IMG/VR virus record: IMGVR_UViG_3300030688_000021
Length of the DNA stretch: 64,000 nt
From: an uncultured virus (IMG/VR IMGVR_UViG_3300030688_000021)
Taxonomy: Duplodnaviria > Heunggongvirae > Uroviricota > Caudoviricetes
Direction: 5' to 3' (one strand)
Of the stretch, positions 9,816-62,525 are shown piece after piece. Each line of letters opens with the position of its first letter. Position 1 is the first letter of the stretch. The notes below the pieces were generated by a model. That model was given only the letters and a program-made list of their open reading frames with translations. It was not told where the DNA came from and did not search any database. Position numbers and translations under genes: made by a program.

Positions 9816-9891
9816 TTTACACGCCCACTAGGCGTGATAAGATGCTCTCATGAATGACGCACACAGCGCCAACCCTGCTGAGGAGAGCATC
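9816..9891 (+). promoter_or_regulatory. Sigma70-type promoter plus GCTGAGGAG motif
   Basis: TTTACA 9816, 16 bp, TAAGAT 9838; motif 9877; 9841-9849 complementary to 9883-9891. Confidence 0.75.
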
Positions 9892-10284
9892 ATGACCGAC
9901 GTCAAGACCATCAACACCAAGACCCGCGACGCCGCCACCGCCCAGCTGCGCAAGCTCGGTATCGCAAAAGAATTCTATAACAAGTTCATCACCCACCACG
10001 AGGGCGGTTTCAGCGTCGAGCTCGGTGCCGCGAAGAAGTTCCTCGAGCCGCCCAAGACCACCAAAACCAAGACCGCCAAAGCCAAGCGCGACGTGAAGCT
10101 AGATGGCGTCACCCGCCGTGAGGACACTGTCTCTGCCCGTGCTCGTCAGCTGATCCTCGAGGGCTTGGCCAACAAGGACGTCTTCGCCAAGCTGAAGGAA
10201 GAGTTCAACCTTCCTGAGACGAAGAAGTCCTACCCGGCCTGGTATCGCTCTGAGCTGCGCCGCCAGGGCAAACTCCCCAGCTGA
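9892..10284 (+). CDS. Basic protein with C-terminal WYR domain
   Basis: RBS then ATG 9892; SARARQLILEG..PAWYRSELRRQGKL. Confidence 0.85.
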   Translation: MTDVKTINTKTRDAATAQLRKLGIAKEFYNKFITHHEGGFSVELGAAKKFLEPPKTTKTKTAKAKRDVKLDGVTRREDTVSARARQLILEGLANKDVFAKLKEEFNLPETKKSYPAWYRSELRRQGKLPS

Positions 10285-11584: not shown

Positions 11585-11971
11585 ATGGCCAAGTACATCG
11601 TCACTGACAAGAACGGCCTCGTATTTGAGGTTGAGGCCGACACGTGCTACGAGCTTGGAGGAGACCTCACGCTGCTCGCCGGCGGCGGCCAGCTGGCCGC
11701 CCAGTGGTCCATCGGGATGTGGGTTTCAGTGGTCAAGACCGCGAAGGTCAAGTCCTCTGACGCGGTCATCAAGCTCTCGGTCGCAGAGATCCAATCTGGC
11801 CTGACGCGCGTCAGAGCTGCTGAAAACTTGGTACCGCAGCTTCCGTCTGGCCACGACGGTCGTAACACTTGGCTCTTGAACTATGGGATTGGGTTTCAAT
11901 CTGTCGCTCTTCGAACCAGTCGAGGCGTCAAGTTCGACTTCGAAACTCTTAGCGCGGAGACCATGTCGTGA
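11585..11971 (+). CDS. Hypothetical protein
   Basis: RBS aggagga; coupled to thyX. Confidence 0.7.
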   Translation: MAKYIVTDKNGLVFEVEADTCYELGGDLTLLAGGGQLAAQWSIGMWVSVVKTAKVKSSDAVIKLSVAEIQSGLTRVRAAENLVPQLPSGHDGRNTWLLNYGIGFQSVALRTSRGVKFDFETLSAETMS

Positions 11972-12582
11972 AGATCATCAATCCATCGACCGAGATCCTG
12001 ACTGCCACGCCTGACTTGGAGCGGACCATTGAGCGGGCTGGCCGAGTTTGCTACAAGTCAGAGGACCGGATCACCGGGGACTCGGCCGCGAAGCTCATTG
12101 CTCGTCTTGCCGAGAGCAAGCACGAGTCAGTCTTGGAGCACGGGTCGATCACTGTCCTGTTCGTCTGCGATCGCGGGGTCTCTCACGAACTAGTCCGTCA
12201 CCGGATCGCCAGTTTCTCGCAGGAGAGCACCAGGTACTGCAACTATGGCAAGGACAAGTTCGGCAACGAGATCACTCTGATCCAACCTCTACTTGGCCCA
12301 GACCCGTCCTTGGAACGAGAGCAAGCTTGGCTTGACGCCTGCCGGGCTGCAGAGTCGGCGTATTTTGAGCTTCTTGACATGGGCGCCTCCCCACAGGAAG
12401 CCAGGTCTGTGCTGCCCAACAGCCTCAAGACCGAGGTAATCATGACCGCCAATCCGCGTGAGTGGCGTCACGTCTTCAAACTGCGTTGCGCAGAAACTGC
12501 CCACCCACAAATGCGTGAACTGATGATCCCGCTCCGCGAAAAGTTCCAGCAATTTTGGCCGGCGCTGTTCAGCGACCTTTAG
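11968..12582 (+). CDS. thyX: FAD-dependent thymidylate synthase
   Basis: HESVLEH, RGVSHELVRHRIASFSQESTRY, EARSVLPN. Confidence 0.97.
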   Translation: MKIINPSTEILTATPDLERTIERAGRVCYKSEDRITGDSAAKLIARLAESKHESVLEHGSITVLFVCDRGVSHELVRHRIASFSQESTRYCNYGKDKFGNEITLIQPLLGPDPSLEREQAWLDACRAAESAYFELLDMGASPQEARSVLPNSLKTEVIMTANPREWRHVFKLRCAETAHPQMRELMIPLREKFQQFWPALFSDL

Positions 12583-13537: not shown

Positions 13538-13738
13538 ATGACCTTTACTACCTGGATGGAACTGAACACCAAGATGCAAATGGCCACGGAGGAAGACTGT
13601 GTGTCGTTGCTGAAGGCCGAGAAGGAAGACCGCAAGCGAAAGCAGTTCTTGCTGCGGATCCACTCACGGCTGAACAGGTTGCGGGCCGCGCGTGAGCGGT
13701 CTGAGTTGGTGGCCATTGCAGAACTGGGTTGGTCATGA
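13538..13738 (+). CDS. Hypothetical protein
   Basis: RBS ggag; coupled to pol. Confidence 0.7.
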   Translation: MTFTTWMELNTKMQMATEEDCVSLLKAEKEDRKRKQFLLRIHSRLNRLRAARERSELVAIAELGWS

Positions 13739-15696
13739 GGAAGCCAAAGATCCCAAAACCGGTCACGGTCGACTTTGAAACCTTTGGCATCGAAGGTCGG
13801 CCAAAGTACCCACCAATTCCTGTGGGCGTCTCCATTAAATACAAGGGCATGAAGGCCAAGTACTATGCCTGGGGCCATGCCACGAATAACAACTCCTCAT
13901 ACGCAGAGGCTCGCGAAGCCTTAGAGAAGGCCTGGGCGCATCCCGATGGCGTGTTATTCCACAATCACAAGTTCGACGTGGACGTGGCCGCCACTCACAT
14001 GGACCTGCCTGAGCTGCCGTGGGACAAGTACCACGACACCATGTTTCTGGTGTTCTTGGATGACCCAAACCAGATCGAGCTGGGACTGAAGCCATCGGCC
14101 ACGAGACTCTTGAACATGCCTCCCGATGAGCAAGACGCCGTGGCTGATTGGTTGGTTGAGCACCAGCCGTTGAGCCATGTCGGGGTCAAGATCGGTCATG
14201 GGAAGTCGTCAAAGGAGCATTACGGAAAGTACATCGCCTTCGCTCCTGGTGACATCGTGGGCAAGTACGCCGACGGCGACGTTATCCGCACCGAGAGGAT
14301 CTTCGAGAAACTCTGGCCTTCGATCGTCGAGCGTGGGATGCTGAAAGCTTATGACCGCGAGCGCGAGCTTGCCATGATCCTCTTGGACATGGAGCGGCAG
14401 GGCGTCAGGCTCGACCTAAAGCGCCTCAGGTCAGACGTGGCCATGTATTCTGAGACGATGGTGGAGCTCGAGACCTATATCCGCAAATCTCTCAAGGCAC
14501 CAGACCTGAACATAGACGCGGGCGCTCAGTTGATCGACGCCCTGATCGCGGCTGGTAAGTCGAACCCTGATGAGCTGGAGCTGACGCCTACAGGCAAGTA
14601 CAAGTCCGACAAGACAGCCATTGGCCATGGCTGCCACGATAAGACTTTGGCGGCTGTGCTCAAGTACAGGTCTCAGCTGAAGACCTGCCTGAACACGTTT
14701 ATGAAGAGCTGGTTGGCCACGGCCGAGGCCTCTGGCGGGTTTATCTTCACCAGTTGGAACCAAACCAAGTCTGCTGAGGGCTCAGGAGCCATCGGTACGC
14801 GTACTGGCCGTCTGTCGTCTACCCCGAACTTTCAGAACATCCCAAAAGAGTTCGCGGCGATCTTTGCCCATGACGAGAAGGACCTAAAGAAGGCCAAGCT
14901 CTTGCCGAAGTGCCCCTTTAAGGGTGGCCTCCCGCCGCTGCCCTTGGTGCGAAGCTACATCATCCCGTACGCCGATGGCGACGTGCTGATCGACCGAGAT
15001 TACAGCCAGCAAGAGCCTCGTATCCTCGCTCACTTTGAGGACGGCGCGCTGAAACAAGCGTACATTGACAACCCTTGGATCGATTACCACGACAACGCCA
15101 AGGAGCATCTGGAGCGTGTTCTTCACAGGCCATTCGAACGTAAGCCTGTGAAGAACATCAATCTGGGGATCATCTACGGCCAGGGCGTCGGCAGTCTCGC
15201 CATCAAGAACGGATCGTCCGTTGAGGAAACCAAGGAGCTGAAGGATCAGATCTTTGGTCTGTATCCTGGTCTGCGAGACATGTACAAGGACATGAGGCTC
15301 AGGGCTAAGACCAACACACCAATCCACACATGGGGTGGCCGTGAGTATTACTGCGAGCCACCTAAGCTCATTGATGGGCGGCTGAAGACGTTTGACTACA
15401 AGATGGTCAATACTCTCATTCAGGGATCGGCTGGTGATTGCACCAAGGAAGCTATCATCCGCTATTACAGAGTCAAGCCAAAGCACCACAGGCTTCTTCT
15501 CAACGTGCATGACCAGCTGACGGCATCGGTGCCGAAGGCTGAGCGGTTCAAGGCCATGGAGATCATGCGTCATGAGATGGAGGGAGTGGAGTTTGACGTT
15601 CTTATCCTCAGCGAAGGGTCAATGTCGGAGACCAATTGGGCTGAACTTATCGACACCGACAAAAAAGGAAAGCCAGTAAATGCCTCCCATCATTAA
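13735..15696 (+). CDS. polA: Family A DNA polymerase with 3'-5' exonuclease
   Basis: VDFET, HNHKFD, TGRLSS.PNFQNIP, DYSQQEPRILAH, K.INLGIIYG, IQGSAGD, VHDQ. Confidence 0.97.
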   Translation: MRKPKIPKPVTVDFETFGIEGRPKYPPIPVGVSIKYKGMKAKYYAWGHATNNNSSYAEAREALEKAWAHPDGVLFHNHKFDVDVAATHMDLPELPWDKYHDTMFLVFLDDPNQIELGLKPSATRLLNMPPDEQDAVADWLVEHQPLSHVGVKIGHGKSSKEHYGKYIAFAPGDIVGKYADGDVIRTERIFEKLWPSIVERGMLKAYDRERELAMILLDMERQGVRLDLKRLRSDVAMYSETMVELETYIRKSLKAPDLNIDAGAQLIDALIAAGKSNPDELELTPTGKYKSDKTAIGHGCHDKTLAAVLKYRSQLKTCLNTFMKSWLATAEASGGFIFTSWNQTKSAEGSGAIGTRTGRLSSTPNFQNIPKEFAAIFAHDEKDLKKAKLLPKCPFKGGLPPLPLVRSYIIPYADGDVLIDRDYSQQEPRILAHFEDGALKQAYIDNPWIDYHDNAKEHLERVLHRPFERKPVKNINLGIIYGQGVGSLAIKNGSSVEETKELKDQIFGLYPGLRDMYKDMRLRAKTNTPIHTWGGREYYCEPPKLIDGRLKTFDYKMVNTLIQGSAGDCTKEAIIRYYRVKPKHHRLLLNVHDQLTASVPKAERFKAMEIMRHEMEGVEFDVLILSEGSMSETNWAELIDTDKKGKPVNASHH

Positions 15697-19739: not shown

Positions 19740-20378
19740 ATGGCCAAAGCCCCGAAGCCAATCACCGGCACCAACTACTTCAAATTCCATTGCCCGGTCT
19801 ATGGGACCGTTCGCTCCTTCGAGGAGGCCAAGCAGCTGTGCCTGGACCACTCAATGGGCCGGCGAAACCACTCGGCCATGGTGCACGCCATCCTCCGCGC
19901 CTCGAAGGACCCGATCTTGCACATGCTCCATGAGGAGCGCTTGGCCGGCCATCCCATCTACTTCACCGAGGACCCTGACGCCGAGCCAGGCTACCCAAGC
20001 GACGCCGTGCTGGAGCGGATCGCTCCACTGCTGATCCTCGACTCCTTCATGCAGGGCTGCACCGACGAGGAGCGGACCCAGCTGGTCGCCCTGAACGAGT
20101 CAGCAGTTCCTGTTGGCACCAGGGTCTCAGGCTCAGCCCTGAAGCCCAAGCGCAAGATGGGTAAGACCACTGCCTCTGACAAGCCCAAGGCAGTCAGGAC
20201 TCCACGCGAGGCCGGCAAGCCCTCAGCTGCCGGTCGCTTCCGTGAACTGATCTTGGCCGGTGGTAAGTCAGACGACGAGATCTTTGCAGCCGTCAAGGCG
20301 GAATTTAACCTCGACGACAATCGTAGGTCGTACGTGGACTGGTACCGTAAGGATCTGAAGAAGCAGGGTAAGTTATAA
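19740..20378 (+). CDS. Protein with C-terminal WYR domain
   Basis: KPSAAGRFRELILAG..YVDWYRKDLKKQGKL. Confidence 0.85.
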   Translation: MAKAPKPITGTNYFKFHCPVYGTVRSFEEAKQLCLDHSMGRRNHSAMVHAILRASKDPILHMLHEERLAGHPIYFTEDPDAEPGYPSDAVLERIAPLLILDSFMQGCTDEERTQLVALNESAVPVGTRVSGSALKPKRKMGKTTASDKPKAVRTPREAGKPSAAGRFRELILAGGKSDDEIFAAVKAEFNLDDNRRSYVDWYRKDLKKQGKL

Positions 20379-20385
20379 AAATCAG

Positions 20386-20437
20386 TTTACGGGCATCGTC
20401 GTCCGTGCTATGATGCCTAATCTGCCTTGCTGAGGAA
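20386..20437 (+). promoter_or_regulatory. Sigma70-type promoter plus GCTGAGGAA variant
   Basis: TTTACG 20386, 17 bp, TATGAT 20409; motif 20429. Confidence 0.75.
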
Positions 20438-20441
20438 TGAC

Positions 20442-21536
20442 ATGGGCAAAAAGTATCCCTACACCAGCACCCGCTACAGCCAAGGTCCCTTTCGAGTGGC
20501 AATTGGCGCGGCGTTCTCAGGGCCCTCCCGTCTGTGGAACGGCAATGAGCATCGTCCTACGGCGGTCGTGACGAAAGTTCATGCAGATTACATCCGCGTG
20601 GCGTCGCACGACTTTTTCCAGGTCGAGATCTTAGAAGTTCGACACGTTGACTTCGCCAAGCTGTTTGAGCCGCTGCTGGTTCCTGGGATCCAGGCTGCCT
20701 ATGAGCTGCTTCACCTCTGTGATAGTATGCTCATCGTTCCTCCAGTGGACACCGAGCTCCAAAAGCTCATCATCGACCCTAAGGAGGACGTCGTGCCACG
20801 CGACAAAACAAAACTACCGTCGAAGACCAATGCCACAGCCGAGAAATTTGCTGGGACCTTGACCGCCTACGGTCCTGGTCCTCGGAGCAACGGTCGAAAC
20901 CACACCTGCCTCGTCACCAAGCGAGACAAGGAGTGGACTGAGTACGTGTCCTTGTATGACGGCTGCACCATGGGGCTCGTGCTTGGGAAGACTCACACAG
21001 CTGAGTTTGACCTGTGGTACGCCAAGTCGGACAATTTCCCCGTCGTCAAGCTGGCGAACCTCTATTTCGAGTATGCACGCCACGCCGGGGCTACCAAGGA
21101 GGCACTGGATGTCCTGTGCCGAGTCATCAACATTTCTGATCAGGAGTACGAAATGGCTGTTGCCAAGAAGAACGCCCAAGCCCCGAAGGCTGATACCGAA
21201 GCTGCCAAGCCGGCCTCTGAGCCCAAGGCCACGAAAGCGCCTGCCGTGAAGTCCGCTGCTGAGCCCAAGGCTCCTGCTGCGAAAGCCGCCAAGGTCGACA
21301 AGCCCGCGGCGAAGACCGACGCCAAGGCGGATACCGGAGCCGCCAAGCCCTCTGCCTCGGCGCGCTTCAAAGAGCTGATCATGGCCGGCAACAAGACCGA
21401 TGACGAGATCTTCGCCCTGGTCAAGACCGAGTTCAGCCTGTCCGACGACAAGCGCGGCTACGTCAAGTGGTACCGGAACGACATGGCCAAGAAGGGCCTT
21501 AACCCGCCGGCGGCCAAGGAACCCAAGGCCAAGTAA
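20442..21536 (+). CDS. Protein with Ala/Lys/Pro-rich linker and C-terminal WYR domain
   Basis: KPSASARFKELIMAG..YVKWYRNDM; possible internal starts with RBS near 20793 and 21153. Confidence 0.85.
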   Translation: MGKKYPYTSTRYSQGPFRVAIGAAFSGPSRLWNGNEHRPTAVVTKVHADYIRVASHDFFQVEILEVRHVDFAKLFEPLLVPGIQAAYELLHLCDSMLIVPPVDTELQKLIIDPKEDVVPRDKTKLPSKTNATAEKFAGTLTAYGPGPRSNGRNHTCLVTKRDKEWTEYVSLYDGCTMGLVLGKTHTAEFDLWYAKSDNFPVVKLANLYFEYARHAGATKEALDVLCRVINISDQEYEMAVAKKNAQAPKADTEAAKPASEPKATKAPAVKSAAEPKAPAAKAAKVDKPAAKTDAKADTGAAKPSASARFKELIMAGNKTDDEIFALVKTEFSLSDDKRGYVKWYRNDMAKKGLNPPAAKEPKAK

Positions 21537-21547
21537 CGAAACTCTCT

Positions 21548-21588
21548 GCAAAGGCGCTTAGGTCTGACGCCTGAGCGCCTTTGCTTTA
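21548..21588 (+). terminator. Probable intrinsic terminator
   Basis: gcaaaggcgcttagg / cctgagcgcctttgc stem followed by ttt. Confidence 0.65.
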
Positions 21589-21608: not shown

Positions 21609-22427
21609 ATGGTTCAACGACGTGAAAAGACCCGGGATGACCGGGACTACGACAGCACACAGCTCCGTGAGGCTGGACATGGCAAGACGTTGGGGCGAGA
21701 CTACTCGGCGCACTTTTTCCGCTGGAGTTTCGCCCGGCGGTTCATCGGCCTGAAGGACAACGTCATCGAGGTCGGCTGCGGCGAGGATCGGCCCTTGAGC
21801 AAGATCTTGACGGGCGGGGCAGCTCCTCACGTGAACACTTACGTGGGCGTGGACATCAACAAGCTCAAGACGTCGAACAGCCAGCGCCTGACCTTCATTG
21901 GCGAGTTCAACTTCGTCGAGCGCTGGAAGGAAGCTCTGAAGCTGCGTCCTGAGGGCTACGACGTGGTCGTGAACTACGAGGTCATCGAGCACATGGCCGT
22001 CGAACACGGTGCCGCGATGCTGAAGGCCTTCTTCCAAGTGCTGAAGCCAGGTGGTAAGCTGTTGCTGTCGACACCTTGCTACGACGGCAAGCGCCACGCG
22101 GCAAACCATATTCATGAATTCACGGTGCCTGAGCTGCAGGGCTACATCGAGAAGGCCGGCTTCGTGATTGAGCAGCGCTACGGCACTTTCATGGACATCA
22201 AGCACATCGGGAAGCCAGCCAGCCAGCTCGACCCTGAGCTGACCAAGGCAATCCTGAAGGTCCACAAGGAGCTGGAGTCGTATTACGACAACGACGCCCT
22301 GAGCTGCCTGTTCGCGCCAATCTACCCGAACCAGGCCCGTAATAACCTGTGGGTCTGCACCAAGCCTGCCGACGGCAAGCCTGCGAAGTCGGCCAAGAAA
22401 ACCACCGTCAAAGGAGCGCCCTGGTAA
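21609..22427 (+). CDS. Class I SAM-dependent methyltransferase
   Basis: VIEVGCG, YVGVDI, YDVVVNYEVIEH, LKPGGKLLLSTP, HIHEF. Confidence 0.92.
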   Translation: MVQRREKTRDDRDYDSTQLREAGHGKTLGRDYSAHFFRWSFARRFIGLKDNVIEVGCGEDRPLSKILTGGAAPHVNTYVGVDINKLKTSNSQRLTFIGEFNFVERWKEALKLRPEGYDVVVNYEVIEHMAVEHGAAMLKAFFQVLKPGGKLLLSTPCYDGKRHAANHIHEFTVPELQGYIEKAGFVIEQRYGTFMDIKHIGKPASQLDPELTKAILKVHKELESYYDNDALSCLFAPIYPNQARNNLWVCTKPADGKPAKSAKKTTVKGAPW

Positions 22428-22942
22428 TGGAAACTGTCCCCCCTTTCACTCGACCGCTGGTGCCTGATCACGAGCTTCGCGACGTCCGTGAGTTCATGCT
22501 GAAGTTCGGCCAGCTGGTCCACAACGTCCCTGGGCATCTCACTAAGCGCAAGCTGGGTGAGCGCGAGGTCTTCATGCAAGAAGAACTTAATGAGTTCAAG
22601 GAAGCCGCCTCCAAGCAGGATCTGGCCGGCATGGCCGACGCCCTCGTCGACCTGTGCTACGTACTTAAAGGCACGGCTATTATGCTGGGCCTGCCGTGGG
22701 AGGCGCTGTGGGCTGATGTCCATCGGGCCAACATGTCCAAGGTCAAGGGGCTGACTCACCGAGGCCATCTGGTGGACGCCAAGAAGCCTGAGGGCTGGAT
22801 TGGGCCCAAGACCTGGGAGCTTCTTGAGGAGTTCGGCTACGTCCAAGCCAGCTGGTGCACTCCTGAGTGGTCAGCCCACCGCGACGAGTCAAAGTGCCGC
22901 GACGACGAGATCCATCAGGAGGCGTCCCATGGCTCCGTTTGA
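22427..22942 (+). CDS. MazG-like (all-alpha) dNTP pyrophosphohydrolase
   Basis: EELNE, ADALVDLCYV..G, VHRANMSK, KPEGW..P. Confidence 0.9.
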   Translation: METVPPFTRPLVPDHELRDVREFMLKFGQLVHNVPGHLTKRKLGEREVFMQEELNEFKEAASKQDLAGMADALVDLCYVLKGTAIMLGLPWEALWADVHRANMSKVKGLTHRGHLVDAKKPEGWIGPKTWELLEEFGYVQASWCTPEWSAHRDESKCRDDEIHQEASHGSV

Positions 22943-23861
22943 TCGTCATTCGTGCCGGCTCACAATTTTCGAGGGTCCCGATGGAAGTGGAAAGACCACG
23001 GCGGCCAAGTCTTACGCGCGATTAAACAACGCCAAGTACGTGCACTTCGGACCGCTTGCCAAAATCACCAAGGGATTGGCCCGCCTGTACGTCGAGGCCA
23101 TGATGCCGGCGCTGCTCGGGTATCAGGACGTCGTCTTCGACCGCTGCTGGTTGAGCGAGGTGCCGTATGGCCTCGCCTTCCGTAACGGCGAAGACCGCCT
23201 GGGTGACGACCAGCGACGGATGCTCGAGCGCTTGGCTCTTCGATGCGGCGCCGTCGTGGTGAAGTGCTTACCGCCGTGGTCCACTGTGCGCGGTAATTAC
23301 CTCAGCAGGAAGGAGATCGAATACCTCGAAAACGAGGATCAGCTCATGTTGGTCTACGGGCAGTACCAAGCCATGGCGACAGCGCTTCCCGTCTATAACT
23401 TTGACTACACCGCGCATGCGTCTGGTGTTCCAGTCGTTAACTCGCTGCGCAGTCAAAGCCATTCTGTGTCAGTCGCCTCAGCCGGCAACGCACTGGCCAA
23501 AATTGTGCTCGTGGGCGAGAATTTCGCCGAACCTTGCGAGCATGGTCCGTGGTACCAATGGCCGTTCGCATCGTTCACCGGCTCTGGCTGCAGCCAGTGG
23601 CTAACTCAGCAGCTTCACGCAGCCGGGATCGGAGAGAACCAGCTGTGCTGGGTCAATGCCGATCAAAATCTCGAAGAATTCTTCGAGAAGTCGACGAGTC
23701 TAAGCTCCACGGTCTTCGCGCTTGGCGGCACTGCTAGTGGGGTCTTAGATCGTCTAGGGCAGTGCCACGTTCGTCAATCGCATCCACAGTATTGGAAGCG
23801 GTTCTGGTCTGCCGAGCCCTATCCTCTCATTGGCGCCATCAAGGAGGTCCTCAATGCTTAA
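22929..23861 (+). CDS. dNMP kinase fused to uracil-DNA-glycosylase-like domain
   Basis: IFEGPDGSGKTT and FDR..SE.PYG; C-terminal LVGE, VNA, FALG..A, HPQY. Confidence 0.8.
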   Translation: MAPFDRHSCRLTIFEGPDGSGKTTAAKSYARLNNAKYVHFGPLAKITKGLARLYVEAMMPALLGYQDVVFDRCWLSEVPYGLAFRNGEDRLGDDQRRMLERLALRCGAVVVKCLPPWSTVRGNYLSRKEIEYLENEDQLMLVYGQYQAMATALPVYNFDYTAHASGVPVVNSLRSQSHSVSVASAGNALAKIVLVGENFAEPCEHGPWYQWPFASFTGSGCSQWLTQQLHAAGIGENQLCWVNADQNLEEFFEKSTSLSSTVFALGGTASGVLDRLGQCHVRQSHPQYWKRFWSAEPYPLIGAIKEVLNA

Positions 23862-24669
23862 AGAAGCCGCTCCGCTGTCGAACGTCTGGGTTAAGACCCT
23901 GGCTGACATTATCGTCAACGGCCACCCGGTGGCTCCTCGCGGCCAGCGCACCTTGGAGATCCCCCAACATACCGTGTTGGTTGACATGCTCCACCCAGTG
24001 TTGCTGGTCAAGGAGCGAAAGCTCCAGTATCGGTTTATGGCGGCCGAGGCCCACTGGATCTTGTCTGGTGACAACCGGGTGGAGACCATCGCCCCGTTCA
24101 ACAAGAACATCGGCCGTTTCAGTGACAACGGCCAGACGTTCGACGGAGCCTATGGTCCTCGGATCCAGGCTCAACTTGACTACGTGGTCGAGAAGCTGTT
24201 GGAGGATCCAGACACGCGCCAGGCTGTCATGGCTATCTGGACACCGAACCCCGAGCCTTCGAAGGACATCCCCTGCACGGTGGCTTTTTCGTTCATGGTC
24301 CGTGGTTCGAAGCTGAATGTCCACGGCTTCATGCGTTCCTCGGACGCATGGTTGGGGCTTCCGTATGACGCCTTCAACTTCAGCATGCTTGGCGCTCTGG
24401 TCTGCGACAGCTTGAACCAGCGCCGGACTGACAAGCTGTCTCCAGGTACGCTCTTCTTGACGCTTGCGAGCAGTCACCTCTACGAGCAGCATTGGGCCGA
24501 CGCCGAGAAGATCATCGATCAGTCTTTTTGGGATTCATACTCAGATCCTGTGCCCTCAAATTACTATGAGGGTCTTGGCCTGACGCTCTATCTGCTCGAT
24601 GGGCTGAAGCACACGACTCCTGGGCATCAGGCTCGGTGGTGGGGGGCGAAAGATGCGGCCGTCTCGTGA
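23854..24669 (+). CDS. Thymidylate synthase-fold enzyme, predicted dCMP (hydroxy)methyltransferase
   Basis: GAYGPR, TRQA, DIPCT, MRSSDAWLGLPYD, SSHLY. Confidence 0.88.
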   Translation: MLKEAAPLSNVWVKTLADIIVNGHPVAPRGQRTLEIPQHTVLVDMLHPVLLVKERKLQYRFMAAEAHWILSGDNRVETIAPFNKNIGRFSDNGQTFDGAYGPRIQAQLDYVVEKLLEDPDTRQAVMAIWTPNPEPSKDIPCTVAFSFMVRGSKLNVHGFMRSSDAWLGLPYDAFNFSMLGALVCDSLNQRRTDKLSPGTLFLTLASSHLYEQHWADAEKIIDQSFWDSYSDPVPSNYYEGLGLTLYLLDGLKHTTPGHQARWWGAKDAAVS

Positions 24670-25147
24670 CGATTGGGCTCTGGAGCTGGTCAGGGCCACG
24701 GCCAAGCGCTCAACATGCCTGCGCCGTCAGGTGGGCTGCGTGCTGCTAAGCGCACGTGGCCACGTGTTGGCCACCGGATACAACGGGGTTGCGGCTGGGT
24801 TGCCCCACTGCAATGAGGTCACCAAGATAACCACTGGGCCATGTGGTGGCAAGGTCTGGGGCCACGCTTGCTCAGGGGCGCACTCGGCCAGTGGTACGAA
24901 CTTGGATGGCTGCCAGGCAATCCACGCAGAGCAGAACGCCCTGTTGCAGTGCAAGGACGTTTACGAGATCGACACTTGCTACGTGTCAGCCAGTCCTTGC
25001 ATGACCTGCGTGAAACTGCTTCTGAACACTGGATGCACGAGGATCGTGTTCATCGACGAGTACCCCCACAAGGAAGCCGGCACCTTGTGGACACAGAACC
25101 GCGGTGCCTCGGGCTGGGTCCTTGATGGTGGAAAATTGCCGTTCTAG
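24653..25147 (+). CDS. dCMP deaminase
   Basis: RSTC.RRQVG, TGYNG, HAEQNAL, SPCMTC. Confidence 0.95.
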   Translation: MRPSRDDWALELVRATAKRSTCLRRQVGCVLLSARGHVLATGYNGVAAGLPHCNEVTKITTGPCGGKVWGHACSGAHSASGTNLDGCQAIHAEQNALLQCKDVYEIDTCYVSASPCMTCVKLLLNTGCTRIVFIDEYPHKEAGTLWTQNRGASGWVLDGGKLPF

Positions 25148-47158: not shown

Positions 47159-47845
47159 TCATAGTAGTTCCAGTACACAAGAATTTTTTGTAAGTTTCAG
47201 AACCTTAAATTTGGACCCTTTATCCAAAAGGATTTCATTTTTCGTTCTGTTCTTTACTTCTCCGTCAAGGGGGATTGCCTTTGCCCCTTTTGGTAGCTGA
47301 ATAGTCATCCAATGAGTCAAAGAAGAACCCGTAACACTAGATTTATTTGTCGTAGTAGACATGAACCCCGCGTCACTCACCTCCCCATTTTTTGCTTGGG
47401 CGACGATCTTTGACCACGCTTCATTGTCAACGCCACGATAAACAGTCATGTCTTTCTGAAGGCTGGCCTTAGAAAAAGCATCGTCAAGAGATGAAATGGT
47501 TTGTTTCAAATGTTTTGAATTTCGGATCGGTGTCCCGGACGAGTATTTGCCTTTTTCCACGGACGTGCCATTGCGCAAATAGTCATTGATTGGATAAGAC
47601 CCGGACAGCGTGTATGTCTCCAGCGCTTGCTTATTGGATTTAGACAATTCATTTTTTGTAGTGGTTTTCTGTTCTGACGGTTTTGAGGCTTGGGTTAGCG
47701 GAGTGGTAATCTTAGATTTTGAACTTAGCCGGCCACCTGCGCCAGCTATCACTTTCCCGACTCCGTTCACCAACACATGCGAGCCTGTCATGGTGATCCA
47801 GCGCTCAGAGTCATCAGTAGTGTGGACGTGGATGTGGGTAGTCAT
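47159..47845 (-). CDS. ADP-ribosyltransferase (R-S-E clade, VIP2/C3-like)
   Basis: YT..Y.IN.YLR, VYRG, GFMSTT, NEILL..G..F. Confidence 0.85.
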   Translation of the reverse strand: MTTHIHVHTTDDSERWITMTGSHVLVNGVGKVIAGAGGRLSSKSKITTPLTQASKPSEQKTTTKNELSKSNKQALETYTLSGSYPINDYLRNGTSVEKGKYSSGTPIRNSKHLKQTISSLDDAFSKASLQKDMTVYRGVDNEAWSKIVAQAKNGEVSDAGFMSTTTNKSSVTGSSLTHWMTIQLPKGAKAIPLDGEVKNRTKNEILLDKGSKFKVLKLTKNSCVLELL

Positions 47846-48598
47846 CTACAACTCCTCTGGGATGACCGGCTCTGGGTAGCACCGGCAATTTGGGATACAG
47901 CCGGCATGCCCAGTCAACTTGTCAAGTGTTGGTGGGCTGTCCCAACGAACGAACTGCCCTGCCATTTTCTTGTGGGACGGTCTGACATCGTTATCCGATG
48001 ACGTGCGCCAGATGTAGCCCGGAGACCCGATGCCCTGGGCCCGAGCTTGCATGAGTGAGGTCTGAGTCCGTCCAGTCTCTGTCCTGGCAATTAGCGTTGC
48101 CCGACTCGCGGTGACATGGCCGGTCTCTAAAATCTCTTTGGCAACCTCTGCAGCCCGAGTAGAGTTGGTTAGTCCCTCGATCGTGAGCTTGTGCACTCGC
48201 TGCGCTGCCTCAATGGGGAGGCTGGTGATCAGGTCCACGTGCTGATCGAGAAGGCGGCGTAAACTCTGCCCACTGACTTCCTTGTCAAGCTCAGCGCGTA
48301 GAGCATTCGAAAGACCCTTGGTCTGGGCTTTCCAAGAGCGGCGGTCTTGGTGGTCGAGCTCAGCAATCAGTCGACCTGCAACAGACTCGGCCCAAGGCTT
48401 CAGCACCTCTGAATACCGCTCCAGAACCTGACTGATTTTTTCGGATGACTCAGCAGTCCCGACCGGGAAGCCCTTGACAATTCGGCCAATCTCATGGGCG
48501 ACCCGCCTCAACTCTCGCGCGTAACGCAGCTCCAAGCCCTTCGCGCGTTGGAAGTCGGCTCGTTGAGTCTTGGCGTCGTGAGTTGGGCGGAGGGGCAT
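47846..48598 (-). CDS. MuF/SPP1 gp7-like head morphogenesis protein
   Basis: LIARTE, YIWRT..D..VRPSH, NCRC.PEP. Confidence 0.93.
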   Translation of the reverse strand: MPLRPTHDAKTQRADFQRAKGLELRYARELRRVAHEIGRIVKGFPVGTAESSEKISQVLERYSEVLKPWAESVAGRLIAELDHQDRRSWKAQTKGLSNALRAELDKEVSGQSLRRLLDQHVDLITSLPIEAAQRVHKLTIEGLTNSTRAAEVAKEILETGHVTASRATLIARTETGRTQTSLMQARAQGIGSPGYIWRTSSDNDVRPSHKKMAGQFVRWDSPPTLDKLTGHAGCIPNCRCYPEPVIPEEL

Positions 48599-49092: not shown

Positions 49093-50997
49093 TCACTCCG
49101 AGGTCTTGACGGTTAACGGCTTTGCCCAATCATCGGACTTTAGCCAATCTTTGAACTGTTTGAGGGTTAGCACCTTCACGCCCATGATCCGGTCTTGGCC
49201 CTTGCCGTCGTGGTAGCTGGCGCAGTAGTCACGGATCGCAGAGCTTTGGTTAAAATAGCCGAGCATACACTTGTGCTCGTCGAACTCGCCGGTGCTCAGG
49301 TTGGCCTGGTCGATCACGTAGACCCTCTGGCTGTGGCGAAGAGGACCGACGAAGACATCCATACCTTCATCAGGGCCCTCAGCTGAACCGGTGCCTTCGA
49401 CATAGCCGTAGTCGGCCGCCATCTTGGCATGCCAAGAACCGTCTCGAGCCTTACGAACCTCACCCTTGCCCGTCTCAATGACGAGAGGGAGCCCCTGGTA
49501 GTCGAGCTTAGTCATAGGCCTCGGCGCTTCGCCGTCATCTGGCATCGCCTCGTCCTTGATGCTACCGAGGTGACGCTGAGCTTCCTGGATCCCAACAGGT
49601 TGCCCAGCGTCACCGGCACCTTCCTCCTCGCTGCCCATGGCCTGTTCAGCGTTCGGAGGAGGAGCACCCTTAGCAGCTGTGATGTCCTCATCGGTGATGT
49701 TCGTCCAAATGCCGGTCTGGCGTGACGACTGCCGCAGCTCTTTGAGAGCCACGTCCTGAGTGACAAGACCAGACTCCCAAGCGCTTTGGACCGTGGTCGT
49801 GACACCGGAAGCAACGTCTGCCTTCTCTTTGTCATTCGGCACCTTGAGGGAGCGGAAGGTGAAGGTCATGTCAGCAGGCGGGTCAATCCCAAGCTCTGAG
49901 CGGCACAGCAGGTCGAGGATCACGCCCATGGGTTGACGCAGGCGGGTATCCTGCTTACGACGGATCGACTCGTAATAGTTAGTCAAATCGGTCTCACCAG
50001 TGCTGAAACCAGCGGGTGACTGGCCAAACAGACGAACTAGGGGCACCTCAACTGCGCCGGAGATCTGTTCACCCATCTGCATGAGCACGTCACTCAGACC
50101 GGCGAAGGTGTAGGTCTCAGAGCTGAATTCATCTTCGGCGTCCAAAAGAGTGATGCTCTCGTTGGACTGCATGGACCTCATCATGTCCATCTGTTTGAGT
50201 AGGCCGTTGAGGGCAGGACCACCCATCGCCACGGTCTCGCGCAGTGACTTGACCTTCAGGGTTCGTAGGTGGGCGCGGTAAACCAACTGCGCGGCGCCAA
50301 GCGTCGTAGAGTCAAAGGCGACGAGCCGGTCGTAAATGCGCTCGACCACGCTCTCACCCCAAAGCATCTCACCGAGCTTCTGGAAGTAGGGCAGGTCAAG
50401 GCCCTCGAAGCGGATGACGCGGCTGTAATGGATCTTCTCACGAGGAAGACCTGGAGCGTCGGCCACAACATTGTAGAACTTGGGCTTACCCAGATGAGGG
50501 CCGTAATCCGTGACCAGGTCGTTGACGTCGGCTTGAACCATCCACCGGTCAAGAACCAACATGCCTTTGAACTGACCCTTCTTGATGCTGTCAGTGCGAA
50601 GGGGCTCGGCCATGCTCTGGTTTTCGATGAGGAAGACACCGATCGCGCCGCCAAACAGCCGAGACCAACGAATTGTGTTGGCAACGCCGTCCCACACTTT
50701 CTCCATCAGCGCCGACTGAAGCAATTCGATCTGGTCCGGCGGAAGTTGGGCCTGGATGTCGATACCCGCGCGGGTCATGTCTTCGGCTGGGGCATCCACC
50801 GCTTGGCCAATCAACCATGAACCACGGTACATCGCTTCGAGTTGCTGGCGATTGCGGGTGACGTAGTTGAAGCTATAGTTGGCCTGAGACGCCAAGTTGT
50901 CAGCCCCAAGACCCACGCGAGCTTGGAAGTTGGTGAACCCATCGCGCGTCTTGGTCCCAGCACCGCGCCCTCGGTTCCTGATGGTTTTCCTGCTCAT
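49093..50997 (-). CDS. Portal protein (DUF1073-like) with C-terminal inorganic-pyrophosphatase-like domain
   Basis: MYRGSW..VD..AEDMTR.G, PLVRLFGQSP.G, NYY; C-terminal DYGY..T..D.MDVFVG, FDEHKCMLG. Confidence 0.92.
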   Translation of the reverse strand: MSRKTIRNRGRGAGTKTRDGFTNFQARVGLGADNLASQANYSFNYVTRNRQQLEAMYRGSWLIGQAVDAPAEDMTRAGIDIQAQLPPDQIELLQSALMEKVWDGVANTIRWSRLFGGAIGVFLIENQSMAEPLRTDSIKKGQFKGMLVLDRWMVQADVNDLVTDYGPHLGKPKFYNVVADAPGLPREKIHYSRVIRFEGLDLPYFQKLGEMLWGESVVERIYDRLVAFDSTTLGAAQLVYRAHLRTLKVKSLRETVAMGGPALNGLLKQMDMMRSMQSNESITLLDAEDEFSSETYTFAGLSDVLMQMGEQISGAVEVPLVRLFGQSPAGFSTGETDLTNYYESIRRKQDTRLRQPMGVILDLLCRSELGIDPPADMTFTFRSLKVPNDKEKADVASGVTTTVQSAWESGLVTQDVALKELRQSSRQTGIWTNITDEDITAAKGAPPPNAEQAMGSEEEGAGDAGQPVGIQEAQRHLGSIKDEAMPDDGEAPRPMTKLDYQGLPLVIETGKGEVRKARDGSWHAKMAADYGYVEGTGSAEGPDEGMDVFVGPLRHSQRVYVIDQANLSTGEFDEHKCMLGYFNQSSAIRDYCASYHDGKGQDRIMGVKVLTLKQFKDWLKSDDWAKPLTVKTSE

Positions 50998-52232
50998 TAC
51001 GCCATAGCTCCGAGTTTGGCGAACACGCCGACCGTGCTGCTGCGGCGGATATAACCGTCCAAAGCGTAGCGCAGGGCGTCCCACAGATGGTTGTTGGCAT
51101 CGACGATCACGGGCAATACGTCACCGGTGTTCTGATCGACCTTGTACTTATACAGCGCGGCTTCCATAGTGAAGTGTTTGCAGCGCGGGTGGATAACGAT
51201 CTTCGTGAAGCCCTTGAGGTGGGCAATGCCGTCCTCAATCGATCCAGGCCATTTGTCAGCGGGAGCAATGTTGAAGCCCTGGCGACGAACGTAGCTGATG
51301 GTCTCAGGCCTCGCGTTATCGGCCTTGACTGGCCACTCTCTGGATTTCGGCACGGAGTCGAAGAAACCAGGGAGTTGCTCGAACTCTACCCCGCGGCCAT
51401 AGGCCTCATGGGTGACGTAAAGCGTGTTGTCCTGGATGTAGCACCGAACCATGACGGTCGGGTCTTGGGAAAAGCCCCAGTCCACCCCGTAGTAAGGTCT
51501 GACATCTTCAGGCTCAGAGAAATCATCGACGATGTAACGGCCTTTGAAGATGACAGCATCGCTGATCGTCCGGCAGTTGCCGTTCCAAACCCAGTCATAG
51601 GCGTCGGGGTCCTTGGCCAACATATCCAGTCGCTCGTCATTGAGTACCTCAGGAAACCATGGGTTCCCATCGAAGTTGACCTTGACGACGAGGGCGTTCT
51701 TCGGCGGGTTTATTACGAAGCGCTTCCAGGTCGAGGACTCAGAGTCATCGGGGTTAAAGGTCACCCAGATTTCCGAGTATTCCTTGCGGATGGTGGGGAT
51801 CAGGATCTGCCAGGACTCGGCGGATACCGACTGGGCTTCTTCGACCCAGCAGACGTCGATGCCCTCAGTCGACTTAATTTCATTGATGTTGCGGCGAAGG
51901 CCTTTGAACAGGAACTCAGACCCAGTCAACGGGCAAAGAATACTGTTCTTCGTGATGACGAAAAAAGAACTGAGGCCCAAGGCCTCAATCTGGTCGCTCA
52001 ACAGTTTGTGGACTGAGTCCGCGATGGACGTTTGAAATTCACGGACGCAGAGCACTCGGACCTTGCTGGTGTACGCGAGGCTGATCAGCACCCGCGCGAT
52101 GGTCCAGGACTTGGAGGAACCACGCCCACCGTAGAACACCTTGTAGCGGTGGTTCCGGTAGAGACCACGAAAGGCGCCTGGTACGTCGAGACCAATGTCT
52201 GGTTTTTTCTCGATGCAGGCGAGGGTCGTCAT
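50997..52232 (-). CDS. terL: Terminase large subunit (PBSX-type)
   Basis: YGGRGSSKS, WVEEAQ, TFNP, GVDWGF, ADNARPE, NHLWDALRY. Confidence 0.97.
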   Translation of the reverse strand: MTTLACIEKKPDIGLDVPGAFRGLYRNHRYKVFYGGRGSSKSWTIARVLISLAYTSKVRVLCVREFQTSIADSVHKLLSDQIEALGLSSFFVITKNSILCPLTGSEFLFKGLRRNINEIKSTEGIDVCWVEEAQSVSAESWQILIPTIRKEYSEIWVTFNPDDSESSTWKRFVINPPKNALVVKVNFDGNPWFPEVLNDERLDMLAKDPDAYDWVWNGNCRTISDAVIFKGRYIVDDFSEPEDVRPYYGVDWGFSQDPTVMVRCYIQDNTLYVTHEAYGRGVEFEQLPGFFDSVPKSREWPVKADNARPETISYVRRQGFNIAPADKWPGSIEDGIAHLKGFTKIVIHPRCKHFTMEAALYKYKVDQNTGDVLPVIVDANNHLWDALRYALDGYIRRSSTVGVFAKLGAMA

Positions 52233-60815: not shown

Positions 60816-61265
60816 TCAGGGCCGGGATAGGCGCGTTTTTCCTTCCTTTTTCTCCGGCGGTCCTTCCCGTTGCTGCTCGATGTACTGCTTCACGATTTCC
60901 AGCGGAGCGCCGCCGCAGGATGCAGCAAAATAGGACGGGCTCCAAAGGTGGTTGCCCCAGAGCTTGCGCTTTACCTCTGGGAAGTTCTGTTGCCGCAAGC
61001 GGCGACTGGAGACGCCTTTCAGGCTGTTCACCAGCTTGGAAAGCTGCACGGTGGGCGGATACTCGATGAGCAAATGAACATGGTCGTCCTCGCCGTTCAC
61101 CTCCTTCAGCACCGCGTCAAACTCGGCGCAGACGCCGAGGAAGGCGTCTTTTAGCACGACATGAACACGATCTGTAAATACGCCTCTCCGGTATTTTGTG
61201 ACGAAGACCAAGTGAACATGAAGCGCAAAAACAACGCTCCGCCCCCTACGGTATTCGGTATCCAT
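60816..61265 (-). CDS. tnpA: Y1 HUH transposase
   Basis: HLVFVTKYRR, DHVHLL, KGVSSR, LWSPSYF, YIEQQ. Confidence 0.96.
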   Translation of the reverse strand: MDTEYRRGRSVVFALHVHLVFVTKYRRGVFTDRVHVVLKDAFLGVCAEFDAVLKEVNGEDDHVHLLIEYPPTVQLSKLVNSLKGVSSRRLRQQNFPEVKRKLWGNHLWSPSYFAASCGGAPLEIVKQYIEQQREGPPEKKEGKTRLSRP

Positions 61266-61304
61266 TCGCTTGCCTCCATGAGTTAGACCTATTATACTCA
61301 TGGC

Positions 61305-62525
61305 ATGGTTACGCTCAAGGCATACCGCTATCGCTTGTATCCAAGCGCCGAACAGGAAGCCCTGTTTCGGCAGACGGTCGGCTCGTGCCGGTTCGTCTAC
61401 AATCTTTGCCTTGAGCAACGTCGCCTGGAATGGCATCGCAGCAATCCGCGACGCCTGACCGCCTATGACCAGATTAAGGAACTCCCGGCGCTCAAGGATG
61501 AAGCGCCCTGGCTGCGTGACGCTCCCAATCACCCGCTTCAGCAAGCGGTCGTCGATCTGGAAAAGGCGTTCAGGAATTTCTTCGACGGTCGCGCCAGCTT
61601 CCCGAAATTCCGCAAACGTGGTGACCGCGACAGCTTCCGCTATCCCGATCCGAAGCAATTCAAAATCACGGCGGAGCGGGTTTTCCTGCCCAAGGCCGGG
61701 TGGGTGGATTGGACCCAGCATCGCCCGATGGAAGGCAAGCCGAAAACGGCCACGGTCTGCCGTGAGGCGGATTGCTGGCATGTCTCGATCCAATGCGAGA
61801 TCGAGGCGGCGGATCCACTGCCTAATCTCGGCCCTGCCGTGGGAATCGACCTGGGAATTGCCAAGCCACTCGTCCTTTCGACCGGCGAATTGGTCATGCT
61901 GCCGCGCACCAGCGAGAAGGAGCGGCGCAAGCTGGCAACCTTGCAACAGCGGTTGGCGCGGCGGGACAAAGGCTCCCAGAACCGGCGGAAGGCCAAGATG
62001 GCCGTTGCCCGGTTTCAGGCGAAATTGACGCGGCGGCGCAAGGATGCCGCCCACAAGGCGACGACGACAATTGCCAAAAACCACGGCCTTATCGTCGTCG
62101 AGGATCTGAAGGTGCGCAACATGACGGCCAGCGCGGCGGGAACCGTCGAGGAACCGGGCCGCAATGTCCGGGCCAAGGCAGGTCTCAACCGCTCCATGCT
62201 GGATGTCGCGCCTTCGCAAATCCGCCAAATGCTGGAATACAAGGCGGCTTGGCATGGCTCCCGGCTTGTCGCTGTGCCTGCCGCCTACACCAGCCAGCGA
62301 TGCAGCGTCTGCGGCCACGTCCACAAGGATAACAGGCGGACGCAAGCCGAATTCCTGTGTCTGGAATGCGGCCACGCTGAAAACGCCGACACCAACGCGG
62401 CGAAGAATATTCTCAGTCTTGGACTGAAAACCGGAGGACTTCCGGGGATGGCCTGTGAATCGAACCGCGTTAGCGGTCGGAAACAGGAAAAGCGGGCCGT
62501 GAGGCACCGAAGCTCGGCCCTTTAG
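61305..62525 (+). CDS. tnpB: TnpB RNA-guided nuclease
   Basis: YRYRLYP, GIDLG, VEDL, TSQRCSVCG..CLECG, NADTNAA. Confidence 0.96.
   Translation: MVTLKAYRYRLYPSAEQEALFRQTVGSCRFVYNLCLEQRRLEWHRSNPRRLTAYDQIKELPALKDEAPWLRDAPNHPLQQAVVDLEKAFRNFFDGRASFPKFRKRGDRDSFRYPDPKQFKITAERVFLPKAGWVDWTQHRPMEGKPKTATVCREADCWHVSIQCEIEAADPLPNLGPAVGIDLGIAKPLVLSTGELVMLPRTSEKERRKLATLQQRLARRDKGSQNRRKAKMAVARFQAKLTRRRKDAAHKATTTIAKNHGLIVVEDLKVRNMTASAAGTVEEPGRNVRAKAGLNRSMLDVAPSQIRQMLEYKAAWHGSRLVAVPAAYTSQRCSVCGHVHKDNRRTQAEFLCLECGHAENADTNAAKNILSLGLKTGGLPGMACESNRVSGRKQEKRAVRHRSSAL

Follow-up and report, generated by a model that had tools for sequence, protein, structure and literature searches.

A five-gene operon in an uncultured phage genome

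The window analysed here, a 64,000-nucleotide stretch from an uncultured virus of the Caudoviricetes (IMG/VR record IMGVR_UViG_3300030688_000021), is phage DNA that encodes a portal protein, a major capsid protein, a sheath protein (DUF3383), Baseplate_J, a family A DNA polymerase (PolA; 13729-15696, + strand; DNA_pol_A, 2.8e-48), a ligase, an SNF2 helicase, a primase-helicase and the flavin-dependent thymidylate synthase ThyX (11968-12582, + strand; Pfam Thy1, 1.6e-51). Between positions 21609 and 25147 the + strand carries five overlapping open reading frames (ORFs), for a methyltransferase, a MazG-like enzyme, a kinase fused to a uracil-DNA glycosylase (UDG) fold, a thymidylate synthase homolog and a deaminase, and these form the operon examined in this study. 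An earlier note, made from the sequence alone, had described this region as a predicted cytosine-modification operon of five coupled genes with thyX elsewhere, at 11968, a phage PolA and no recognisable glycosyltransferase. All five ORFs are present with matches to the corresponding families, thyX and PolA lie at the positions given above, and a Pfam comparison of 71 window ORFs at E<=1e-4, in which many ORFs had no match of any kind, turned up no glycosyltransferase family.

The first gene of the operon (21609-22427) encodes a class I S-adenosylmethionine (SAM)-dependent methyltransferase of a virus-specific family (Methyltransf_23, 6.7e-14), a candidate tailoring enzyme. It is followed by a MazG-like (PRA-PH) all-alpha nucleoside triphosphate pyrophosphohydrolase (22427-22942; PRA-PH, 1.3e-15; phrog_671, 2.3e-21), a putative dCTP/dUTP pyrophosphatase. 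The third gene encodes a fusion protein whose N-terminal domain (residues 1-176; 22929-23456) is a thymidylate-kinase-like deoxynucleoside monophosphate (dNMP) kinase domain by its match to phrog_761, thymidylate kinase (1.8e-10), and whose C-terminal domain (residues 176-310; 23454-23861) was assigned a UDG fold by structure comparison of a predicted model. Next come a thymidylate-synthase-fold enzyme (23854-24669; PF00303 Thymidylat_synt, 1.4e-23), predicted to be a deoxycytidine monophosphate (dCMP) hydroxymethylase, and a dCMP deaminase (24653-25147; dCMP_cyt_deam_1, 3.5e-18; phrog_174, 1e-33). From the first junction to the last, neighbouring genes share 1, 14, 8 and 17 nt, with a Shine-Dalgarno-like motif ahead of each junction. 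A terminator-like hairpin on the + strand, with a 16-bp stem followed by a T run (21548-21584), separates the operon from the upstream gene, whose stop codon is at 21536.

Diagnostic residues of the synthase homolog

The sequence RSSDAWLGLPYD was found in the synthase homolog, and its final Asp is residue 172 (codon GAC, 24367-24369), which aligns with Asn177 of E. coli ThyA and Asp179 of T4 gp42, as the earlier note had read it. The note's further statement that Asp at this position confers a preference for dCMP agrees with published accounts, in which the N177D exchange shifts preference from dUMP to dCMP (PMC13326640, section 24; MetaGPA, PMC8670742). We compared the homolog with E. coli thyA, T4 gene 42 and RB69 gene 48 (numbering hereafter follows E. 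coli ThyA), and with its counterparts in 49 related loci, of which 46 came from an IMG/VR scan anchored on the fusion protein and three from GenBank, giving 50 sequences with the window. The thymidylate synthase fold and catalytic core are kept in all 50, including the catalytic Cys (E. coli C146; C141 in the window enzyme, 24274-24276), Arg166/Ser167, Glu58, Tyr94 and His207.

At the four published diagnostic positions (143, 147, 169 and 177), E. coli ThyA has L, H, D and N, T4 gp42 has D, T, D and D (D145, T149, D171 and D179), and RB69 gp48 has E, T, N and D. The window enzyme has D, T, D and D, namely D138 (24265-24267), T142, D164 (24343-24345) and D172, and thus matches T4 gp42 at all four. 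RB69 gp48, serving as a positive control, displayed its published signature in the same alignment, indicating that the residue reading works. Position 143 was read directly as the catalytic Cys minus 3; the corresponding column of a larger MAFFT run, affected by a gap and a one-residue shift, was rejected because it put Phe in T4 gp42, where Asp or Glu is published. Across the 50 sequences, Asp occupies positions 169 and 177 without exception and position 143 in 49.

Each of these positions bears on the likely product. At 143, bulky residues accompany methyl products and acidic ones (Asp or Glu) hydroxymethyl products, the latter as in T4-like enzymes and MilA; D169N marks the flavin-dependent 5-hydroxy-dCMP synthases (NAR 2026, PMC13326640). 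The best solved sequence relative of the window enzyme is MilA, a CMP 5-hydroxymethylase (3.5e-21). Taken together with the D/T/D/D pattern, this relationship leads us to predict 5-hydroxymethyl-dCMP as the product; that is, the residues point to a dCMP hydroxymethylase rather than to a dCMP methylase, a 5-hydroxy-dCMP synthase or an ordinary thymidylate synthase. The 5-substituted dCMP suggested earlier is in this way supported and narrowed to one predicted compound.

A dCMP methylase would fill the phage DNA with 5-methylcytosine (5mC) in place of cytosine, a chemistry that Xanthomonas phage XP12 achieves with such an enzyme, and the SAM methyltransferase of the operon would then be unrelated to it. 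The case for this alternative is that N177D alone makes a canonical thymidylate synthase a dCMP methylase, according to the MetaGPA paper, which cites mutant studies of 1992 (PMC8670742). However, canonical ThyA and ThyA-like dCMP methylases are marked by a bulky hydrophobic residue at 143 together with His147, and the window enzyme has Asp and Thr there, exactly as T4 gp42 does. A methylase-like type does appear once in this phage group, at a locus (L042) where the cassette has no SAM methyltransferase: its synthase (L042:8878-9768) is of the canonical type (PF00303, 3.8e-83), with the Leu143, His147 and Asp177 expected of a dCMP methylase. We consider a methylase at the window locus unlikely.

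Less probable by far is that the enzyme resembles RB69 gp48 and makes 5-hydroxy-dCMP in a flavin-dependent reaction, in which case the base would derive from 5-hydroxycytosine. Asp177, an acidic 143 and Thr147 are common to the window enzyme and RB69 gp48, and 5-hydroxycytosine is made by diverse phages (PMC13326640). The distinguishing D169N exchange is nonetheless missing, since the window enzyme (D164) and all 49 relatives carry Asp where RB69 gp48 carries Asn, and the Pfam scan of the window ORFs turned up no glycosyltransferase; we give this alternative hardly any credence.

Conservation of the cassette among related phages

By DNA comparison, the operon region matches Stenotrophomonas phage AXL3, Pseudoxanthomonas phage PW916 and a Manatee Spring contig at ~70% identity, all with the same five genes in identical order. 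In AXL3 (gp27-gp31) and PW916 the synthase residue pattern is also that of the window; their DNA is ~70-73% identical to it over the aligned 47-69% of the region, and their synthases are 52-54% identical. The two cultured phages are siphoviruses of ~47.5 kb, whereas the window has myovirus-type genes (sheath DUF3383, Baseplate_J). In the nearest record (G001), a fragment of 23 kb, the methyltransferase is missing.

Among the 49 loci, the synthase homolog was present in every one, the MazG-like gene in 45, and the methyltransferase and the deaminase in 43 each. Contig ends account for two of the four loci without a MazG-like gene, and a third carries dUTPase_2 at that position; the six loci without the methyltransferase comprise two truncated ones and four real absences (L030, L035, L042 and L043). 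The usual gene order is PolA, exonuclease, SNF2, one or two small conserved proteins, methyltransferase, MazG, kinase-UDG, synthase and deaminase. The motifs KD[IVYC]PCT, RSxD and PYD, which hold the D/T/D/D residues, occur in 49 of the 50 sequences, L042 being the exception.

A second scan, anchored on the methyltransferase, returned 347 related viral loci, and the counts that follow come from the best 80 of these 347. A synthase homolog lay near the methyltransferase in 72 of the 80; the remaining eight were either cut by the contig end (five) or held distant methyltransferase homologs at 41-44% identity (three). All but one of the 72 linked synthases fitted a D / T-or-H / D motif expression, and the single misfit lies on the same contig as L031, whose synthase reads D/T/D.

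Outside these sets, the podovirus Pelagibacter phage HTVC119P encodes a synthase homolog (gp16; L052:4932-5780) that is 44% identical to that of the window and has the same D/T/D/D residues; no other cassette gene is annotated in the 10.7-kb stretch viewed.

A restriction-resistant cultured relative and cytosine-modified metagenomic contigs

Of 37 restriction enzymes applied to AXL3 genomic DNA, 35 failed to cut it; the exceptions were TasI and Tru1I, whose sites are all A/T, so that cleavage occurred at AATT and TTAA and at no G/C-containing site (PMC7504290). The report concludes that G or C is altered and notes a ThyX homolog, gp50, while annotating the cassette itself as thymidylate synthesis (PMC7504290). 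Bulky tri-arabinosyl groups are described as blocking an AATT cutter (PMC13326640), so the cleavage of AXL3 DNA at AATT hints, weakly, that its modification is probably small. Full substitution by 5mC would account equally well for the resistance at G/C-containing sites.

The MetaGPA study offers a comparison with phage contigs that were selected experimentally for modified cytosine (eLife 2021, PMC8670742). The strongest enrichment among these cytosine-modified contigs is that of Thymidylat_synt (109 vs 303, corrected p 2.7e-112; PMC8670742, supplementary table 2), dCMP_cyt_deam_1 (1.0e-85), PRA-PH (1.2e-45) and Thy1 (1.7e-36), and Thymidylate_kin is significant too (4.6e-4) (PMC8670742). The network described there joins a thymidylate synthase carrying Asp177, PRA-PH and dCMP deaminase, all three found in our operon, and Thy1 and Thymidylate_kin, enriched in that study, likewise have counterparts in the window. 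These genes co-occur there with a carbamoyltransferase that derivatises the hydroxyl of 5-hydroxymethylcytosine (5hmC) (PMC8670742), whereas the accessory enzyme in the window is a SAM methyltransferase. Four cassette families plus ThyX thus make up a signature already known for phage DNA with modified cytosine. Both the AXL3 cassette with its digests and the MetaGPA family enrichment agree with the cytosine-modification reading proposed in the earlier note, and the existence of this signature makes the finding less novel than that note supposed: the core cassette is a known kind of system, and the new parts are the methyltransferase and the kinase-UDG fusion.

The same data bear on a reading in which cytosine is untouched, and the operon either supplies ordinary dTMP or modifies thymine through 5-hydroxymethyl-dUMP. 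This would agree with the annotations given by the AXL3 and PW916 authors, who named a thymidylate synthesis pathway or a dUMP hydroxymethyltransferase, and with the NCBIfam thymidylate synthase models, which all match the synthase homolog, although every match is below threshold. It is at odds with the invariance of Asp177 in the 50 sequences, with a separate ThyX that already covers dTMP, and with the cleavage of AXL3 DNA at AATT and TTAA but at no G- or C-containing site; we judge it very improbable.

Pyrophosphatase and deaminase

The MazG-like pyrophosphatase, whose start codon overlaps the methyltransferase stop codon by 1 nt, scored 58 bits against PRA-PH (cut-off 21.3). Among proteins of solved structure it is most similar to the dUTP-specific Deinococcus enzyme DR2231 (6.9e-10). 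Its proposed functional analogue in T4 is gp56, annotated as clearing dCTP and dUTP from the pool and matching Pfam dUTPase_2. This gp56 family fills the MazG slot in some relatives of the window (L025, L094 and L101). The deaminase translation contains the HAE and PCxxC zinc motifs and scored 65.8 bits against a cut-off of 25.

A kinase fused to a UDG fold

The 310-residue fusion protein has 648 homologs at E<=1e-3, mostly full-length and ~55% identical, and its sole sequence signal is a thymidylate-kinase P-loop. All sequences in the fusion alignment share the P-loop (FEGPDGSGKTT) and a DR motif, and only the P-loop contributes to the curated-family matches, which reached 17.1 bits for PF02223 (cut-off 27) and 21.2 for TIGR00041 (cut-off 83). 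A structure was predicted with confidence from 35 sequences (mean predicted local distance difference test score, pLDDT, 89.1; predicted template-modelling score, pTM, 0.89). Its kinase domain (residues ~5-187) matched the thymidylate kinase PfTMPK in Foldseek (2wwg, 2e-6) and aligned by VIA-align with deoxynucleoside and thymidylate kinase structures at Z 12-13 (1g3u, Z 12.8; 8puu, Z 13.2). By this model, the N-terminal domain is a dNMP-kinase-type fold that falls outside the curated thymidylate kinase family.

The earlier suggestion that the remainder of the protein is a UDG was borne out, at the level of the fold, by the predicted structure, in which residues 176-310 aligned with Thermotoga maritima UDG (1l9g) at Z 10.8 and a root-mean-square deviation of 2.6 A over 125 residues. 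Further matches were to family 4/5 uracil-DNA glycosylases (6ail, Z 10.3; 2d3y, Z 10.2), and Foldseek returned 1ui0 (7e-5). This half had no Pfam match, and a profile of 20 C-terminal domains gave chance matches only against PDB sequences. F213, N243, H285 and P286 are invariant within it, while the residue that follows the conserved (motif-A) Gly can be E, Q, D, A or T; the invariant Phe, Asn and His-Pro presumably occupy the UDG pocket motif positions. We call the C-terminal half simply a putative pyrimidine-pocket domain. A literature search on kinase-UDG fusions found nothing relevant among the papers listed.

Such an architecture might suggest a kinase that works on DNA, with the UDG fold flipping out 5hmC and the kinase phosphorylating its hydroxymethyl group to prepare it for substitution, in the manner of 5-hydroxymethyldeoxyuridine (5-hmdU) DNA kinases in the hypermodification of thymidine. 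Consistent with this, the two domains are always fused and are rigidly packed in the model (pTM 0.89), and the pocket keeps its stacking Phe, Asn and His-Pro throughout, in contrast to the variable residue behind the conserved Gly. One locus also encodes a protein that is a 5-hmdU DNA kinase helical domain alone (HMUDK_hel, 1.1e-43; L043:6795-7628), standing in the methyltransferase slot, immediately 5' of the MazG-like gene and two genes 5' of the fusion; this hint is a single case. Against a DNA-level kinase, the closest folds are mononucleotide or nucleoside kinases (Z 12-13), with polynucleotide kinases scoring lower (Z 9-10.4), and a pathway acting on the nucleotide pool needs a kinase for the modified dNMP. 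In the assay of NAR 2026, moreover, robust incorporation required the cognate dNMP kinase (PMC13326640). We regard a DNA-level kinase as improbable, a shade more so than a methylase role for the synthase, and favour a dNMP kinase.

In the relatives without the fusion that we inspected, a conserved ORF of ~130 aa lies between MazG and the synthase (RGGHPGALA...DYN...NFEGL.DTALDIINYAGF; L061:8205-8600, with equivalents in L055, L067, L081, L088, L094, L101, L110 and L113). The two representatives compared with Pfam had no match.

The methyltransferase and its variable slot

The methyltransferase, for which there is no precedent, is better conserved than the neighbouring genes, at ~70% identity across phages vs ~55% for the fusion protein. 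It scored 52.4 bits against Methyltransf_23 (cut-off 27), its VGCGE motif (a GxGxG-like SAM motif) is invariant, and a fold search with its model (pLDDT 88.1) confirmed a Rossmann-type class I methyltransferase fold. PDB sequences gave weak O-methyltransferase matches only (best 1.6e-4), and the NCBIfam matches, to UbiG, Hen1 and others, were all far below threshold. Its Atlas clusters are unnamed and 88-100% viral.

Six loci (L025, L026, L028, L033, L037 and L048) carry a C5-cytosine DNA methylase-like gene between the methyltransferase and MazG, with a PPC catalytic motif, ESV instead of ENV, and QxRxR kept, and at a further locus a C5-cytosine DNA methylase domain and the methyltransferase are fused in one ORF of 639 aa (L131:5807-7726). 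Where the methyltransferase is missing, its slot can hold the HMUDK_hel protein described above or three unrelated genes, one with a weak match to pyridoxal-phosphate enzymes (L030:3069-6120). A slot that varies among DNA-level enzymes, together with the analogy to the MetaGPA carbamoyltransferase, makes the methyltransferase a plausible candidate for a tailoring enzyme acting on the hydroxymethyl group.

The specific form of this idea is that the methyltransferase O-methylates 5hmC, so that 5-methoxymethylcytosine would stand for cytosine in AXL3, PW916 and a large group of environmental phages, and that the fusion would be a new bifunctional enzyme within that pathway. We put this forward tentatively, as a proposal with the odds clearly against it. 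A literature search returned no report of 5-methoxymethylcytosine in phage or natural DNA; if the methyltransferase does tailor 5hmC, natural DNA would gain a further base, and the O-methyltransferases a new class acting on DNA or nucleotides.

Apart from this, a C5-methylase-like gene is an odd possession for phages that are predicted to have no unmodified cytosine.

A proposed pathway for cytosine replacement

We propose that the operon is a T4-style cassette through which a C5-modified cytosine of the 5-hydroxymethyl type replaces cytosine in the phage DNA, and assign this reading a probability of about 0.75. The replacement base is most likely 5hmC, possibly methylated further, and it would shield the DNA against bacterial restriction enzymes. 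We infer the enzymatic steps below from which genes are present, from the diagnostic residues, from how widely the cassette is kept among relatives and from the resistance of AXL3 DNA to restriction; every element of the earlier note's inference that was open to such comparison agrees with the data. The MazG-like pyrophosphatase would take dCTP, and probably dUTP, to the monophosphate, keeping cytosine out of new DNA and supplying dCMP. The synthase homolog would convert dCMP and methylene-tetrahydrofolate to 5-hydroxymethyl-dCMP, which the thymidylate-kinase-like domain would phosphorylate; host enzymes would complete the triphosphate for incorporation by PolA. The deaminase would turn part of the dCMP into dUMP, from which ThyX would make dTMP, so that thymine stays normal. 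In the most speculative step, the SAM methyltransferase may methylate the hydroxymethyl group.

In its logic and its proposed activities this scheme repeats the T4 hydroxymethylcytosine pathway, in which gp42 is the dCMP hydroxymethylase, gp56 the dCTPase/dUTPase, gp1 the dNMP kinase, cd the dCMP deaminase and td the thymidylate synthase. The synthase shares all four diagnostic residues with gp42, although the two proteins are only ~23% identical. Unlike T4, the window has a pyrophosphatase of the PRA-PH/MazG type, a kinase that is thymidylate-kinase-like and fused to a UDG fold, ThyX rather than a ThyA-type td as the source of dTMP, and a SAM methyltransferase where no glucosyltransferase was found, all but ThyX arranged with the synthase and deaminase in an overlapping five-gene operon. 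MilA, of mildiomycin biosynthesis (PDB 5b6d), has Asp at positions 143 and 177 as the window synthase does, but its substrate is the ribonucleotide CMP in an antibiotic pathway, whereas the window enzyme is placed in phage DNA synthesis.

Several observations weigh against this reading or parts of it. The rule for position 143 is presented by its authors as a correlation only (PMC13326640). Restriction digests of AXL3 cannot separate modification of C from that of G, nor 5mC from 5hmC or a derivative, and our literature search found no paper tying AXL3 to hydroxymethylcytosine. The pyrophosphatase has no direct similarity to T4 gp56 (BLASTP E 0.24), which leaves its dCTPase role a putative one. 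ThyX was found in only two of five complete relatives, and those without it presumably rely on the host for dTMP. The kinase-UDG fusion occurs in 45 of the 80 methyltransferase-anchored loci, and in the 27 synthase-bearing loci without it the kinase step may come by other means. As to the methyltransferase, the fold search gave generic class I enzymes only, at a template-modelling score of ~0.5 and with CmoM with tRNA at rank 4, so that the fold and family searches do not assign its substrate. Methyltransf_23 is not significant in MetaGPA (27 vs 1436, corrected p 1; PMC8670742), and L030, L035, L042 and L043 keep the cassette without the methyltransferase, which is thus not essential to it.

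Complete replacement of cytosine ranks with the most powerful means by which phages resist restriction enzymes and CRISPR, and every new derivative has in turn been put to use in epigenetic sequencing and in the search for enzymes. The cassette marks a large and mostly uncultured phage group, to judge by the 648 homologs of the fusion and the 347 methyltransferase-related viral loci, and its two cultured members, AXL3 and PW916, make the chemistry directly testable. The finding also bears on phage therapy: AXL3 has been proposed as a candidate for treating Stenotrophomonas, and hypermodification has consequences for how phage DNA is sequenced and engineered and for host range.

Other observations in the window

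Two conserved proteins are encoded on the + strand directly 5' of the operon (19740-20378 and 20427-21536), and homologs stand at that place in nearly all related loci. Searches of Pfam, NCBIfam, PDB and Atlas gave no lead for either, and the PHROGs matched are of unknown function only. Both share with a third window protein (9850-10284, + strand) a C-terminal module of ~50 aa (phrog_34102), with a consensus of roughly RF+ELI..G..DDEIF..VK.EF.L...+..Y..WYR.D..K.G. The module is also C-terminal in the C5-methylase-like proteins of L025, L033 and L028 (E 8e-9, 3e-5 and 5.5e-4), and may be a shared docking or DNA-binding tail.

Three further ORFs, all on the - strand, have domain content of separate interest. 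The protein encoded at 47159-47845 contains an ADP-ribosyltransferase exoenzyme domain (PF03496, 9.6e-26) and adjoins a Mu F-like minor head protein (47846-48598), an adjacency to a head gene that suggests a virion-associated ADP-ribosyltransferase. The portal protein (49093-51084; Phage_portal_3, 8.9e-104) has a C-terminal inorganic-pyrophosphatase-like domain (InPase PF18823, 1.2e-29). Finally, an ORF of 563 aa (60816-62507) ends in an IS200-like Y1 transposase domain (PF01797, 3e-42) and is possibly an insertion element within the phage genome.

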